Source: an uncultured Holophagae bacterium (GTDB lineage Bacteria > Acidobacteriota > Thermoanaerobaculia > Thermoanaerobaculales > Sulfomarinibacteraceae). Taken from it: a stretch of 64,000 bases of DNA. Where the stretch lies: NCBI GenBank assembly GCA_963797055.1, contig CAWCOD010000016.1, positions 27,736 through 91,735 on the forward strand, given 5' to 3'. Positions 3,193 to 62,434 of this stretch are shown here, piece by piece. The first letter of the stretch is position 1; the number at the start of each line of letters is the position of its first letter. The position numbers and the translations under genes are program-made. The notes under the pieces are model-generated. The model had not been told where the DNA came from. It saw only the letters and a program-made list of their open reading frames with translations, and did not search any database.

Positions 3193-3262
3193 CTGTGGTG
3201 CGGCCGTCTCGGCTGCACTCATGGCCTTTATTTAGAGCACGGATGCAGGCCAGAGGCCCGCT
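3193..3262. repeat. TJ element (double-hairpin repeat), slightly degenerate copy
   Basis: CTGTGGTGCGGCCGTCTCGGCTGCA, about 26 nt of spacer, then TGCAGGCCAGAGGCCCGCT. Confidence 0.7.
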
Positions 3263-3356
3263 CGATAAATCCTGTTCATCCCAAGCGAGCGAAATGGCCG
3301 CGAGTCGAGGGATCCCCCGGGCTCTCCGGAGGGACGCTCAGCCCACTCACGGCTCT

Positions 3357-16087: not shown

Positions 16088-16197
16088 GTCATCCTGAGCA
16101 GCCGTAGGCGACGAAGGATCAGGGTGGGGTCAAGAACGCATCGGCGACCCACCCAGATCCTCCGACTCGGTCACATCGTTCCCTCGCTCAGGATGAC
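16088..16197. repeat. GTCATCCTGAGC-family inverted-repeat element (full copy)
   Basis: GTCATCCTGAGCAGCCGTAGGCGACGAAGGATCAGGGTGGGG on the left. CCCACCCAGATCCTCCGACTCGG...CCCTCGCTCAGGATGAC on the right. The termini are inverted. Confidence 0.75.
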
Positions 16198-16203
16198 AGG
16201 AAA

Positions 16204-16280
16204 TTGTGGAGCAGGCCTCTGGCCTGCATTTGTCCATTCTATCGAGGCAAGAAATGCAGGCGGGACGGCTGCTCCACAAT
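16204..16280. repeat. TJ element (reverse orientation)
   Basis: TTGTGGAGCAGGCCTCTGGCCTGCA, 26 nt of spacer, TGCAGGCGGGACGGCTGCTCCACAAT. Outer arms are perfectly complementary. Confidence 0.85.
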
Positions 16281-17717: not shown

Positions 17718-17834
17718 TTTGTAGCGCAGCCGTCTCGGCTGCATCTCCGGTGCTAAATGAACGTACGATTGCAGGCCAGAGGCCTGCGCTACAACCGTCG
17801 AATGTGTAGCGCAGCCGGGACGGCCGCACCACAA
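17718..17834. repeat. TJ element plus an extra half-arm
   Basis: TTTGTAGCGCAGCCGTCTCGGCTGCA, spacer, TTGCAGGCCAGAGGCCTGCGCTACAA (17769-17794). Then TGTGTAGCGCAGCCGGGACGGCCGCACCACAA. Confidence 0.85.
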
Positions 17835-20247: not shown

Positions 20248-20346
20248 GATGCTGGATGCTGGATGCTGGATCTTGCTGGATGCTGGATGCTGGATGCTGG
20301 ATGCTGGATGCTGGATGCTGGATGCTGGATGCTGGATGCTGGATGC
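20248..20346. repeat. Heptanucleotide microsatellite (GATGCTG) x13 with one 10-nt variant unit
   Basis: Perfect GATGCTG units at 20248-20268 and 20279-20341, interrupted by gatcttgctg at 20269-20278. Confidence 0.9.
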
Positions 20347-20384: not shown

Positions 20385-20722
20385 CGGGTGGGGGACCTTA
20401 AATCTGGTACCCGGCTGGGTTGGGGCTGCTCCCTGTCCCCTGCTCCCTGCTCCCTGCTCCCTGTTCCTTGTTCCTTGTTCCTTGCTCCCTGCTCCCTGCT
20501 CCGTGCTCCTGGTAGGGCGGGCGGCGGTTCTTCGATCTTCGTTCTTTTTTTTCGACCGGCAACGGCAACGGTAACGGGCTCGGGCTCGGGCTCGGGCTCG
20601 GGGGAAGGCAGCGGATCTGGTATCCGGCATCCGGGTGGGCGGGGGATCCGGCTCCGCCTGCGGCTACGCCGTGACACGTCTCGCATCTTGCATCTTGAAT
20701 CTTGAATCGGGCGGGCGGGGGG
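20385..20722. repeat. Contiguous mosaic of GB-STR modules
   Basis: G-boxes at 20385-20395, 20413-20425, 20511-20527, 20631-20645 and 20709-20722. CTGCTCC/TTGTTCC array 20426-20509. TTCTTCGATCTTCG array 20528-20554. (GGCAAC)(GGGCTC)n 20555-20604. GCATCTTG/GAATCTTG array 20683-20708. Confidence 0.9.
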
Positions 20723-30546: not shown

Positions 30547-30562
30547 ATAGCCCACCACACCT

Positions 30563-30696
30563 GTCATCTCGAGCGAGCGCAGCGAGTCGAGAGATCCCCG
30601 AGGGTCCCTGGTGGATCGCTGAGGTCCCCTGCACGCCTCCCACTTCAGGGGATTCCTCCACTCGTCGCCGCCCGGCGGCTCCTCGGTCGGAATGAC
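30563..30696. repeat. GTCATCCTGAGC-family element (variant)
   Basis: GTCATCTCGAGCGAGCGCAGCGAGTCGAGAGATCC on the left and CTCGGTCGGAATGAC on the right. Confidence 0.6.
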
Positions 30697-39079: not shown

Positions 39080-39280
39080 CATTGCGAATTGCGGATTTCC
39101 CGTCCCACCCGGTGTAGAAGGTGTAGAGGATGTGGATCCGAGCCCGAGCCCGTTGCCGTTGCCGTTTTCGGCTTTCTCATCCCTGGATTCGAGGTGGACG
39201 CAATCGTCCGTGAGACCCAACAACGTTCAACATTCTCCCCCACCCAGATCCTTCGACTCGCTTCGCTCGCTCAGGATGAC
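39080..39280. repeat. GB-STR composite plus a GTCATCCTGAGC-family half element
   Basis: C-box CCCGTCCCACCCGG, ggtgtagaaggtgtagaggatgtgga, tccgagcccgagcccgttgccgttgccgtt, caacaacgttcaacattc. Then CCCACCCAGATCCTTCGACTCGCTTCGCTCGCTCAGGATGAC (39238-39280). Confidence 0.8.
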
Positions 39281-39388
39281 ACGAGGGGAGCGCCGTGTGA
39301 GCAGTGCTGCCCCTGTGCCTGTCCCCTGCAACCTGCCCCCGGTTCCCGGGTCGACCGGACTCTGGTATCTTCGACTCTAGAGAGTCCT

Positions 39389-40786: not shown

Positions 40787-40896
40787 TTTGTGGAGCGGCC
40801 GTCTCGGCTGCATCGTCGCCATTGTGGAGCAGCCGTCTCGGCTGCATTTCCGGCCTCGATTGAAGGCACGATGCAGGCCGGAGGCCTGCGCTACAA
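40787..40896. repeat. TJ element with duplicated left arm
   Basis: TTTGTGGAGCGGCCGTCTCGGCTGCA, ATTGTGGAGCAGCCGTCTCGGCTGCA, spacer TTTCCGGCCTCGATTGAAGGCACGA, TGCAGGCCGGAGGCCTGCGCTACAA. Confidence 0.85.
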
Positions 40897-40974: not shown

Positions 40975-41144
40975 CCGGGCGGGCGGGGGATCCGGCTCCG
41001 CCTGCGGCTCCGCCGTGACAAGTCTTGGATCTTGGATCTTGCATCTTGAATCGGGGTGGGCGAAGGTTCGTTCCTGCTCCCTGCTCCCTGCTCCTTGCTC
41101 CCTGCTCCTTGCTCCTTGTTCCTTGTTCCTGGGCGGGTGGGCGG
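40975..41144. repeat. GB-STR mosaic; its left part duplicates 20631-20722
   Basis: CCGGGCGGGCGGGGG-ATCCGGCTCCGCCTGCGGCTCCGCCGTGACAAGTCT-(CTTGGAT/CTTGCAT/CTTGAAT)-GGGGTGGGCG. Then a CTGCTCC/TTGTTCC array 41066-41129 and G-box 41130-41144. Confidence 0.9.
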
Positions 41145-41209: not shown

Positions 41210-41671
41210 ATGAAGCACGCCATCACTCTTCTCTGCCTCGTCACCGTGCTTGCCGCGAGCCCGCTGGCGGCGCAGGTCCGCGACGAGACCATCCTGACCT
41301 TCGATGTCATCCAGACCGAGCGCAAGGCGCTGGTCATGGAAGCGCTCGACCTGACGCCGACCCAGCTCAAGGCGGTGTCTCCGGTCTACGACGCCTATCT
41401 GGCCGAACTCGACGCGCTCGAGGCGCAAGAGGTGGAGCTGATCAAGCGGTTCCTCGCCAGCTACAAGGGAATGAGCGATGTCGAGGCGGCGGAAATGCTC
41501 GTCGTGTGGGGCGCCCACAACCAGGTCCGGCTGGATCTTCGCAAATACTACACCCGGGAGTTCGCCGAGGTGTTGCCCGCGCGAAAGGTCCTTCGTCTGT
41601 GGCAGATCGAGAACAAGCTCGACACCATCATCGACGCCCAGCTCACCAGGGACATTCCGCTGGCTCAGTAG
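41210..41671 (+). CDS. Small periplasmic helical protein, paralog A (hypothetical)
   Basis: GGAGGA RBS. 153 aa. Signal peptide MKHAITLLCLVTVLAASPLAAQ. Shares VIQTERxALV and QIENKLDxxIxxxL...PL with 46739-47200, which has identical length. Confidence 0.6.
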   Translation: MKHAITLLCLVTVLAASPLAAQVRDETILTFDVIQTERKALVMEALDLTPTQLKAVSPVYDAYLAELDALEAQEVELIKRFLASYKGMSDVEAAEMLVVWGAHNQVRLDLRKYYTREFAEVLPARKVLRLWQIENKLDTIIDAQLTRDIPLAQ

Positions 41672-46434: not shown

Positions 46435-46626
46435 CTTTGTAGCGCAGCCGTCCCGGCTGCACATCTCGCTCCTTAAATCTGGGTGGGCGGGGGAACTTTC
46501 AACCTTCAACCGACCCATTCAGGCCAGAGGCCCGGGCTACAACCCACCGTTGTGGCGCAGCCGTCCCGGCTGCATTTCCCACCTCGATTGAATGCACGAA
46601 TGCAGGCGTCCCGCCTGCTCCACAAT
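46435..46626. repeat. Two adjacent TJ elements; the first carries a GB-STR module inserted in its loop
   Basis: Left arm 46435-46461. Insert 46462-46519 contains G-box CTGGGTGGGCGGGGG and aactttcaaccttcaacc. Right arm CAGGCCAGAGGCCCGGGCTACAA at 46520-46542. Second element at 46550-46626. Confidence 0.8.
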
Positions 46627-49301: not shown

Positions 49302-49411
49302 CTTTGTAGCGCAGCCGTCCCGGCTGCCCTGGCCATTGTGGAGCAGCCGTCCCGGCTGCAGCTCTCGCCTCGGTTCAACCCTCGACTGCAGGCCAGAGGC
49401 CTGCGCTACAA
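49302..49411. repeat. TJ element with duplicated left arm
   Basis: CTTTGTAGCGCAGCCGTCCCGGCTGC, ATTGTGGAGCAGCCGTCCCGGCTGCA, spacer, CTGCAGGCCAGAGGCCTGCGCTACAA. Confidence 0.85.
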
Positions 49412-49440: not shown

Positions 49441-49557
49441 GGGTGAGAAGGAGTGAAGGGGAGAAGGGGAATGTGGCGATCCGGGCGGGAGGGCCCTCTC
49501 ACCCTCTCACCCTCTCACCTTCTCACCTTCTCACCCTCTCACCTTCTCACCCTCTCC
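49441..49557. repeat. Inverted STR pair (GGTGAGAAG-type versus CTCACCYT x8)
   Basis: gggtgagaaggagtgaaggggagaagggga (49441-49470) faces eight CTCACCCT/CTCACCTT units (49494-49557). The right array encodes the last residues (GRGEGEKVRG*) of the MFS gene. Confidence 0.8.
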
Positions 49558-52671: not shown

Positions 52672-52749
52672 TTTGTAGCGCAGGCGTCTCGGCTGCATCG
52701 CTCGCTTCGATTCAAAGCAAGACTGCAGGCCGGAGGCCTGCTCCACAAT
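52672..52749. repeat. TJ element
   Basis: TTTGTAGCGCAGGCGTCTCGGCTGCA, spacer TCGCTCGCTTCGATTCAAAGCAAGA, CTGCAGGCCGGAGGCCTGCTCCACAAT. Confidence 0.85.
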
Positions 52750-55650: not shown

Positions 55651-55715
55651 TCTTGGTAGCGCAGTCGTCCCGGCTGCGATTCTGGCCCTGATTCAGCGCA
55701 CGAATGCAGGCGAGG
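55651..55715. repeat. TJ element, truncated right arm
   Basis: CTTGGTAGCGCAGTCGTCCCGGCTGCGA, spacer TTCTGGCCCTGATTCAGCGCACGAA, TGCAGGCGAGG. Confidence 0.65.
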
Positions 55716-56796: not shown

Positions 56797-56874
56797 CTTT
56801 GTAGCGCAGGCCTCTGGCCTGCATTTGCTCGATCAGTCGAGGCCAGAATTGCAGCCGGGACGGCTGCGCTACAA
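56797..56874. repeat. TJ element (reverse orientation)
   Basis: CTTTGTAGCGCAGGCCTCTGGCCTGCA, spacer, TTGCAGCCGGGACGGCTGCGCTACAA. Confidence 0.85.
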
Positions 56875-56950
56875 CACCAGACCTGGTTTGCGGCCGGGGC
56901 GGCCGCTCCACAATTGTCCTCCGGAGGGGGGCGAGTCTATTCCTCATCGA

Positions 56951-59370: not shown

Positions 59371-59455
59371 GTCGGGCGGGGGAATATGCAATCTGCAATC
59401 TGCAATCTGCAATCTGTAATCTGTAATCTGTAATTCGTAATTCAATCGCAATTCG
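59371..59455. repeat. GB-STR module: G-box + (TGCAATC/TGTAATC) heptamer array
   Basis: GTCGGGCGGGGG followed by aatatgcaatctgcaatctgcaatctgcaatctgtaatctgtaatctgtaattcgtaattcaatcgcaattcg. Same unit as 2438-2500. Confidence 0.9.
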
Positions 59456-62203: not shown

Positions 62204-62281
62204 CTTTGTGGTGCGGCCGTCTCGGCTGCACTTTTAGGCTTCGTTCAACGCAAGAATGCAGGCCGGAGGCCTGCGCTCCAA
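62204..62281. repeat. TJ element
   Basis: CTTTGTGGTGCGGCCGTCTCGGCTGCA, spacer CTTTTAGGCTTCGTTCAACGCAAGAA, TGCAGGCCGGAGGCCTGCGCTCCAA. Confidence 0.85.
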
Positions 62282-62290
62282 CGATGCTCC

Positions 62291-62434
62291 GGGCGGGCGG
62301 CGGGCAATTCAAAATTGAGAATTCAAAACTCAAAATTCACGACCTTGCTCCTTGCTCCCTGTTCCTTCCCTCCGTCCGGCGGGTCGGGCATCTTGCATCT
62401 TGCATCTTGCATCTCGCATCTGGCCGGGCGGCGG
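62291..62434. repeat. GB-STR mosaic abutting the KASIII-like stop codon
   Basis: GGGCGGGCGGCGGG followed by caattcaaaattgagaattcaaaactcaaaattcac. ccttgctccttgctccctgttccttccctcc. GGCGGGTCGGG followed by catcttgcatcttgcatcttgcatctcgcatctgg, then CCGGGCGGCGG. Confidence 0.85.

Follow-up and report, generated by a model that had tools for sequence, protein, structure and literature searches.

REP doublets of the GTAG type in an Acidobacteriota chromosome and the association of their family with RAYT transposases in other genomes

The paired hairpin elements scattered over the chromosome of an uncultured member of the Acidobacteriota are very likely GTAG-type REP sequences, mostly organised as head-outward REP doublets (REPIN- or BIME-like) that are moved by a RAYT transposase. 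This kind of element is already known; what is new is a REP-doublet family in a poorly studied phylum, and the parts worth following up are its conservation across phyla and the nesting of the RAYT genes. The elements were analysed in a stretch of 64 kb, hereafter the window, which has a G+C content of 62% and whose proteins have their nearest matches in Thermoanaerobaculia/Holophagae-like Acidobacteriota.

The repeated unit is a 23-nt hairpin with a GT(A/G)G head

The unit that recurs in the window is 23 nt long and consists of a GT(A/G)G head, a 7-bp GC hairpin and a 3-nt TCY loop. Read from its own head, the layout is common to all arms: (TT)GT(A/G)G, N, the stem GCRG-NNN, the TCY loop and NNN-CYGC(A). 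The pattern GTRGNGCRGSSSTCYSSSCTGCA gave 24 matches in the window with up to two mismatches, when compared to 0.01 in dinucleotide-preserving shuffles, and a 25th arm (46602-46623), whose loop is flipped, lies outside these matches. A GTAG or GTGG head is found at the start of 22/25 arms, the remaining three being decayed (ATCG, GGAG or similar), and many arms match the consensus perfectly. REP DNA represents about 1.5% of the window and several spurious ORFs have their starts within copies; for annotation purposes it is to be masked as repeats and not called as small RNAs or ORFs.

The two arms of one doublet are not alike, the inner stem being CCG/CGG in one and GCC/GGC in the other (GCG/CGC in two copies). 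Across genomes, 230 arms gathered without complementarity as a criterion comprised 139 of the CCG/CGG class, 59 of the GCG/CGC class and 15 of the GCC/GGC class, and the inner 3 bp were fully complementary in 215 of them, when compared to 107±6 upon shuffling. Since the inner-stem classes are complementary, each arm is a perfect hairpin alone, and at the family level each hairpin is clearly kept by compensatory changes. G-T (G-U) pairs are tolerated in the stems, with pair 10-22 being GU in 18 of 65 doublets from the different genomes. The arms belong to different stem classes in 56-58 of these 65 doublets, and the flipped-base-pair difference between them is kept across phyla. The doublet is by rule a heterodimer, and the difference between its arms keeps each hairpin while barring a perfect long palindrome. 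One may speculate that this serves the discrimination of left and right by the enzyme, or the stability of the palindrome.

Doublets are the prevalent form in the window

Ten head-outward inverted pairs contain 20 of the 25 arms, making the doublet the prevalent form, while the other five arms are two duplicated left arms, one double-foot hairpin, one single arm and the arm of a truncated copy. An earlier note on this DNA had placed copies at ten loci, and all ten are present within a few bases of those positions. It had also described a loosely conserved spacer; we found a loose but recognisable consensus (..TTTCYGGCCTCGATTGAANGCACGAA..), with a length of 27-28 nt in all eight regular doublets.

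The canonical arrangement is seen between convergent genes at 17719-17794 (+ strand), where TTGTAGCGCAGCCGTCTCGGCTGCA is followed by the spacer and TGCAGGCCAGAGGCCTGCGCTACAA. The doublet forms part of what had been taken as a single copy spanning 17718-17834; the doublet itself stands, but a separate single hairpin that is headed at both ends (GTGTAGCGCAGCCGGGACGGCCGCACCACAA, 17804-17834, no strand assigned) had been overlooked. This double-foot form also occurs in two of the loci retrieved from other genomes (L064 and L112), and according to Quentin et al. (2018, PMC6006769) double-foot REPs are doublets whose central part has been deleted. Further doublets on the + strand lie between convergent genes at 49336-49411, 3' of a Ser/Thr kinase gene (P0241, 52841-55540, 899 aa) at 52673-52748, and 3' of a FabH-like gene at 62206-62281, where the right head has decayed to GGAG. 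Two doublets occur side by side, one at 46437-46542 (+) with an unrelated spacer of about 56 nt and a decayed right arm (TTCAGGCCAGAGGCCCGGGCTACAA), the other at 46550-46625 (+) with a right arm of the GCG/CGC class and a flipped loop. The copy at 3193-3268 (+) is an old and partly decayed doublet, with the left arm CTGTGGTGCGGCCGTCTCGGCTGCA and a right-arm head degenerated to ..CGCTCGATAA.

The deviations from the regular doublet that had been proposed were all recovered. The locus at 40787-40896 contains, in this order, an extra left arm, TTGTGGAGCAGCCGTCTCGGCTGCA, a 27-nt spacer and TGCAGGCCGGAGGCCTGCGCTACAA; the extra, duplicated arm (40788-40812, +) lies upstream of a doublet with unlike heads (40822-40896, +; GTGGAGC on the left, GTAGCGC on the right). 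A second extra left arm at 49304-49328 (+) results from a 32-nt tandem duplication. Two doublets are inverted relative to most copies, namely 16204-16279 (- strand), in which the GCC/GGC-type arm comes first on the + strand, and 56799-56874 (-). The truncated copy at 55654-55713 (+) retains the left arm and the spacer but ends 9 nt into the right arm, and is located 114 nt upstream of the start of the kinase gene. A single REP adjoining the 56799-56874 doublet (56889-56911, -) was absent from the earlier list.

The copies are intergenic and lie among ordinary chromosomal genes

The ten loci all fall between genes, and the surrounding genes are ordinary chromosomal ones whose ORFs are backed by GC3 and Pfam. 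The flanking genes encode a MacB/FtsX permease, a DUF4136 protein, a heptosyltransferase, an aminotransferase, an AI-2E transporter, an MFS/ATG22 transporter, the Ser/Thr kinase, hydrolases, a thiolase, an acyl-CoA ligase and FabH. Eight loci lie between co-directional genes and two between convergent genes, while none is found in the four divergent regions. The copies are oriented 8 against 2 relative to the + strand and, in the co-directional cases, 6 against 2 relative to transcription, numbers that are too small to interpret. The intergenic DNA of the window is also rich in heptamer tandem arrays, which often adjoin the doublets, and in strand-biased GGGYGGGYGG boxes, often beside them.

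Several other kinds of element were considered. Integron attC sites and CRISPR were ruled out on anatomy, since neither a cassette array nor an R''/R' core nor regular spacing is present. A role as intrinsic terminators was rejected, with one terminator-like arm out of 25 and no promoter-like site coinciding with the copies in the window. No tRNA or tmRNA gene was found in the window.

Two folds compete, and pairing is supported within the arms

As single strands, DNA or RNA, the doublets are predicted to fold more stably than their shuffles, with z-scores of -3.6 to -5.5. The minimum-free-energy fold alternates between a long imperfect hairpin and a multibranch structure, in which two hairpins are closed by the heads. 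The three-way junction proposed in the earlier note corresponds to the latter and is predicted, but as one of two competing folds.

Within the window, covariation does not exceed the shuffled control under either model (89.0% paired versus 88.7% for the multibranch model, 76.4% versus 77.2% for the long hairpin). The head variants GTAG-CGC, GTGG-AGC and GTGG-TGC occur intermixed on the two arms, the same head being present on both arms in only 3 of 8 doublets, and the column pair 9/72 of the window alignment, under the multibranch model, is unpaired in 6 of 10 copies. Therefore, the two co-varying outer-stem alleles that had been suggested are unsupported in the window. Across genomes, a set of 65 distinct doublets, chosen with at most one inner-stem mismatch, was 95.7% paired under the two-hairpin model, when compared to 86.1±0.6% upon shuffling, and none of 500 shuffles was as high. 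The outer-stem covariation across genomes is real, but it arises because the head type is genome-specific on both arms, and it does not prove pairing. Pairing of one arm with the other, as in the long hairpin, meets four fixed mismatches in the window and two in other phyla; in the window and in the 65 cross-genome doublets this model reaches 76-86% paired, equal to the shuffled control.

Some copies are shared with a syntenic relative

Synteny links the window to a 241-kb contig of a relative (ERZ25039603 contig_1903), the neighbouring proteins sharing 74-83% identity. Doublets are present there at the orthologous positions of 3193, 16204, 56799 and 49304. The orthologous copies were aligned at 93% identity for 3193-3268 (L197, 14252-14327), 93% for 16204-16279 (L197, 318-393) and 88% for 56799-56874 (L199, 7925-8000), while the doublet at the 49304/49336 site has a 102-nt spacer full of heptamer repeats. 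No copy is present in the relative at four other orthologous sites, 46437/46550, 52673, 55654 and 62206. This mixture of old, persisting copies and copies that differ between close relatives is consistent with a population of mobile elements that turns over slowly. The differences in presence could, however, reflect loss and not insertion, as no clean empty site was recovered. The identity of the orthologous copies (88-93%) compares with 88-95% for the neighbouring coding DNA, and a conservation on par with coding DNA would also fit a host function.

The same sequence is found in other phyla

An exact scan with GTRGHGCRGCCGTCYCGGCTGCA over one genome per species (596 Gb) returned at least 112 stretches, whereas by our own arithmetic at most about 5 matches are expected by chance even if all 596 Gb had a G+C content of 65%. 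Among the matches listed, and judged by record title, the 23-mer is present in at least 59 assemblies of at least six phyla. These comprise 29 assemblies of Planctomycetota, 12 of Acidobacteriota, 11 of Verrucomicrobiota (including the cultured Brevifollis gellanilyticus, L057), two of 'Binatia' and one each of Armatimonadota and Chloroflexota, with one unclassified, together with two archaeal-labelled MAGs whose contigs are short and possibly mis-binned. Most of the matches listed are doublets of the form TTGTGGTGCRGCCGTCYCGGCTGCA-(spacer)-GCAGGCGRGACGCCTGCACCACAA. In this same set, the spacer measures 4-5 nt in Planctomycetota and the long window-type spacer is confined to Acidobacteriota MAGs; overall, spacers in other genomes are between 2 and 93 nt long. 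Only one match was obtained among 2.9 million viral contigs, and carriage by phages was therefore rejected as a general explanation.

To our knowledge, REPIN-RAYT systems have been discussed as vertically inherited, lineage-specific 'replicators' and studied almost only in Proteobacteria. A 23-nt core common to soil Acidobacteriota, Planctomycetota and Verrucomicrobiota lets two questions be asked, namely whether the REP sequence is fixed by the recognition surface of the enzyme, or whether the systems move between phyla.

The REP class is tied to a RAYT transposase

No RAYT was detected in the 64-kb window by regular expressions, tblastn or a home-built HMM. This is expected, because the RAYT gene is normally single-copy. 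The same searches over the 112 pattern loci matched only one of them (L035), plus a fragment in another (L074). L035 belongs to a Verrucomicrobiota MAG and contains an ORF with the motifs NHVH and YICENP, which matches Pfam Y1_Tnp with E=1.1e-4 (22.8 versus a threshold of 23) and NCBIfam REP_Tyr_transpos with E=2.9e-17 (62.9 bits, below the curated cut-off of 80). The ORF is bounded on both sides by REP doublets, whose arm GTAGCGCAGCCGTCCCGGCTGCA is identical to window positions 46439-46461 over 23/23 nucleotides.

The corresponding protein family comprises 7,583 proteins at E<=1e-10, many of which are named 'REP element-mobilizing transposase RayT' at their source. The best PDB match of the family profile is 4ER8, the E. 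coli TnpA-REP (E=7.8e-5), with the HUH and Tyr motifs aligned. GT[AG]G-headed GC hairpins with TCY-type loops were present on both sides of the gene in 4/4 RAYT homologues that were looked up, and GT[AG]G hairpins flanked both sides in 41 of 70 evaluable metagenomic homologues. Hairpin density reaches 5.18 per kb at the ends of the RAYT genes versus 0.22 per kb elsewhere in the same loci, and some of the flanking REPs are one base pair off those of the window, such as GTAGCGCAAGCCTCTGGCTTGC in L187. In agreement with this, the REP-like element that the earlier note had offered as one of its two readings is borne out by the GT[AG]G head, the GC hairpin, the inverted pairs, the extragenic location and the identical arm beside a RAYT. 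The tie between this REP class and RAYT is also the outcome that the note itself had named as refuting a novel RNA. We infer that the source genome encodes such a RAYT and that it acts on the copies in the window.

The RAYTs flanked by this REP class carry the motifs NHVH / WQ / YIxxNP. RAYT groups 2 and 3 (subclasses 2.2 and 2.5) are characterised by DHLH/YIHYNP and DH[LF]H/YI[VI]ANP (Quentin et al. 2018, PMC6006769), and by this motif comparison the RAYTs found here are not of Bertels group 2 or 3. Their motif signature instead resembles that of subclass 2.7 or 2.4 of Quentin et al. (Bertels group 4). Groups 2 and 3 are the RAYTs reported with abundant REPINs, while the groups matching subclasses 2.7/2.4 have a weak REP association (Bertels et al. 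2017, PMC5581495).

RAYT genes nested in frame within housekeeping genes

Most RAYTs of this family lie in frame inside large genes (54/85 loci, counting those in which the frame stays free of stops for at least 120 codons on both sides of the RAYT match). The parts located up- and downstream of the RAYT are the two halves of one housekeeping protein. The hosts include CarB (14 loci), a DinG-like helicase (6), PriA (4), class-I tRNA synthetases (4) and DnaE (3), as well as ClpB, ExoVII, MgsA and Eco57I/MmeI-type methylases, and the insertion site is constant within each host-gene family. Both the HUH and Tyr motifs (NHVH, YxxxNP) are intact in 30/30 RAYTs checked, and in three ValRS loci and in L035 translation is stop-free through the whole insert. 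We found no description of in-frame nesting of RAYTs in housekeeping genes in the literature searched; the survey by Quentin et al. (2018, PMC6006769) left out 'unexpectedly long proteins'. If confirmed, nested RAYTs would represent a new lifestyle for a domesticated transposase.

Taken jointly, the observations on the REP class and on the RAYT clade allow a wider reading, which we put forward as tentative and hold to be possible more than probable. The two would form one system distributed over several phyla (Acidobacteriota, Planctomycetota, Verrucomicrobiota and others), with a 23-nt recognition hairpin that has hardly changed and transposases that have diverged to about 50-60% identity. 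The enzyme would typically sit in frame, bounded by translated REP doublets, at fixed sites of essential genes (CarB, DinG-like helicase, PriA, DnaE, ValRS/LeuRS, ClpB), in an intein-like niche, and the doublets of the window would be its non-autonomous offspring.

Proposed mechanism and alternative explanations

The mechanism we propose is modelled on the IS200/IS605 enzymes and on E. coli TnpA-REP, reportedly an HUH/Y1 enzyme acting on single-stranded DNA, as Ton-Hoang et al. and Messing et al. are said to have described in 2012. In single-stranded DNA, for instance at a replication fork, each arm would form a separate 7-bp GC hairpin capped by a TCY loop. The RAYT (TnpA-REP; an HUH/Y1 enzyme) would recognise the hairpin together with the adjacent 5' GT(A/G)G guide, then cut and rejoin the single strand, so that the doublet with its 27-28-nt spacer would be copied or moved as a unit into intergenic DNA; it is the constant spacer that points to copying as a unit. 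Insertion would take place without a target-site duplication, and the inserted copies would persist for a long time and decay slowly. The partner RAYT would be expected to bear GT[AG]G-GCRGCCGTCYCGGCTGC at its flanks or at its in-frame borders.

Mobilisation by a RAYT has to be weighed against two other histories of the same DNA. The lineage may have lost its RAYT, leaving REP doublets that can no longer move and that either degenerate or, like BIMEs, are kept as binding sites or as structural DNA. The lack of a RAYT in the window, the decay visible in several copies (3193, 46437, 55654 and 62206) and the four copies at sites orthologous with the relative would all agree with such a relic. We nevertheless regard it as unlikely, since four sites differ between close relatives, many arms match the consensus perfectly, the local duplications of arms suggest recent activity and a normally single-copy gene is expected to be missing from 64 kb. 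Alternatively, the elements could be MITEs that a DDE-type insertion sequence mobilises through terminal inverted repeats; their ends are indeed inverted repeats of about 25 nt and the unit is small and intergenic. However, inspection of the flanks revealed no target-site duplication at any copy, as would be expected of an HUH enzyme but not of a DDE enzyme. Moreover, the supposed 'TIRs' are hairpins in their own right, each with a GT[AG]G foot, arms also occur singly and in double-foot form, and the gene that these repeats flank elsewhere encodes an HUH/Y1 enzyme instead of a DDE transposase, making this explanation extremely improbable.

Some of the evidence could also be taken to mean that the doublets are primarily functional RNA, namely 3'-UTR stabilisers, terminators or sRNAs, and that they are kept by selection on RNA pairing and not by transposition. 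Every copy lies 3' of a gene end, in the co-directional and convergent settings given above and never in a divergent one, the predicted folds beat their shuffles, G-U pairs are tolerated in the stems and the orthologous copies are well conserved; besides, E. coli REPs influence mRNA stability. On the other hand, Rfam 15 gave no match over the whole window at gathering thresholds, and relaxing the cut-off to E<=1 over 40-64 kb left the elements without a match as well. The copies coincide with no promoter-like site and nearly all their arms lack terminator features, those between co-directional genes point both ways relative to transcription (6 against 2), covariation in the window is not above that of shuffles, spacer length is not fixed in other genomes (2-93 nt) and the same sequence borders transposase genes. 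An RNA function as the primary role is thus quite improbable, and the small structured RNA family that the earlier note had envisaged was not upheld, given the lack of an Rfam match and of promoter-like sites, the mixed orientation and the variable spacer. Any role at mRNA 3' ends would be secondary to the spread of REP doublets by a RAYT.

Relation to known REP systems

The closest known elements are the GTAG-tagged REPs, GT[AG]G-tailed families described in Proteobacteria, Cyanobacteria, Chloroflexi and the PVC superphylum, which include the GTAG-20 elements, whose head is GTGG, and HH dimers lying close together in Opitutus terrae (Di Nocera, De Gregorio & Rocco 2013, PMC3733652). As in those families, a terminal GT[AG]G adjoins a GC stem of 6-9 bp whose loop has 2-3 nt, sub-families differ by complementary stem changes with G-T pairs tolerated, HH (head-outward) dimers have conserved spacers of either 20-100 nt or 1-5 nt, and the elements are grouped. 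The likeness extends to in-frame insertions, reported there in DNA-repair and tRNA-synthetase genes and as intragenic in-frame copies in Opitutus terrae (PMC3733652). The likeness to the 24 named GTAG families is one of described features; the supplements of Di Nocera et al. (2013) contain no matching string. Acidobacteriota are not among the hosts of GTAG REPs in that work, and for this phylum only TIR-associated transposases were reported (PMC3733652); the phyla in which we find this REP class are likewise outside the coverage of Nunvar (2010). A search of the literature for the hairpin sequence itself returned primer-like chance matches only.

The doublets also share their organisation with the REPINs of Pseudomonas and Enterobacteria (Bertels & Rainey 2011, PMC3116915; PMC5581495), in which two inverted REPs and a spacer make up one replicating unit. 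In both cases doublets are commoner than singlets, copies are extragenic and persist at orthologous sites, and the partner RAYT has REPs on its own flanks (PMC3116915, PMC5581495). In contrast to the REPIN-RAYT systems of Pseudomonas and E. coli, the RAYTs here carry the NHVH / WQ / YIxxNP motifs and not those of groups 2/3, the REP sequence is common to several phyla and not lineage-specific, and the two arms are systematically of different stem classes. With the REPs and BIMEs of E. coli, the elements have in common a GTAG guide 5' of an imperfect palindrome and the pairing of two REP types in alternating orientation. The associated enzyme is of the HUH/Y1 type in both, with TnpA-REP as the best structural match, although the similarity between the proteins is distant; the hairpins are short and perfect here, whereas those of E. 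coli are long and bulged.

RAYT genes nested in housekeeping genes

At 54 of the 85 loci carrying a REP-associated tyrosine transposase (RAYT) homologue (L035, from a Verrucomicrobiota MAG, and L113-L196), that is, in most of the family, the RAYT gene lies in frame within a housekeeping gene, as exemplified by L035 (1428-4292) and by L142, L173 and L187 over the entire loci. The host gene encodes CarB at 14 loci, a DinG-like helicase at 6, PriA at 4, ValRS/LeuRS at 4 and DnaE at 3, with ClpB, ExoVII, MgsA and Eco57I/MmeI-type methylases as further hosts; inside each host-gene family the insertion site is constant. REP doublets that are themselves translated (..KVAQASRLQ..KPEAYATI.. is an example) border the nested RAYTs, and both the HUH and Tyr motifs were intact in 30/30 RAYTs checked. 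None of the papers covered by our literature search describes RAYTs nested in frame inside housekeeping genes.

Arm asymmetry and REP variants

The two arms of one doublet nearly always differ in stem class, and do so across phyla, as seen in an alignment of 65 distinct doublets from the window and L001-L116 that were selected with at most one inner-stem mismatch. In this alignment the flipped positions are mismatched arm-to-arm in 56-58 of the 65 doublets. Since their arms belong to different stem classes, the doublets are systematic heterodimers and never perfect palindromes.

In a more distant relative (L198, 13043-13720), we observed five tandem copies of a double-foot REP variant, GTGGTGCAGCCATCTTGGCTGCACACCAC, with a period of 162 nt; these copies fall within a called 346-aa ORF, and their stem class, CCA/TGG, represents one more compensated variant. 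We also observed the bacterial-type REP motif on two short contigs binned as archaea, namely a 7.2-kb contig of a Bathyarchaeia MAG (L063) and a 2.5-kb contig of a Nitrososphaera MAG (L074), the latter together with a RAYT fragment. It is likely that both contigs are bacterial and were mis-binned, and that these are not archaeal REPs.

Other repeats in the window

A further dispersed repeat of the window, C(C/G)CTCGCTCAGGATGACA, is present 5 times versus 0.1 expected (2340-2357, 16181-16198 and 39264-39281, with weaker copies at 30562-30579 and 41305-41322). In a syntenic relative (L199, 8826-10001) it forms 39-nt tandem arrays flanking a small GIY-YIG nuclease gene on both sides, a site at which the window has only a truncated REP copy.

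The intergenic regions of the window are densely filled with about 25 tandem heptamer arrays (among them 2440-2500, 20248-20346, 20426-20509, 41075-41130, 59383-59434, 62306-62339 and 62388-62421), of varying unit (GCAATCT, GATGCTG, CTGCTCC, AATTCAA and others), and include one period-8 array (49494-49556). Between REP doublet and heptamer array is the usual place of a G-rich box, GGGYGGGYGG, with 25 sites versus 2.2 expected (for example at 2371, 20515, 41131, 45181, 46635, 52758, 55895, 58028 and 62291). The + strand carries 20 of these boxes and the - strand 5, despite the negative overall GC skew of the window. The syntenic relative has arrays at orthologous sites (L197, 14100-14150, and also L199), and in MAGs of Holophagae and Thermoanaerobaculales (L001, L077, L091) arrays likewise lie beside REPs. 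The heptamer arrays of the window are similar to the STRR repeats of cyanobacteria.
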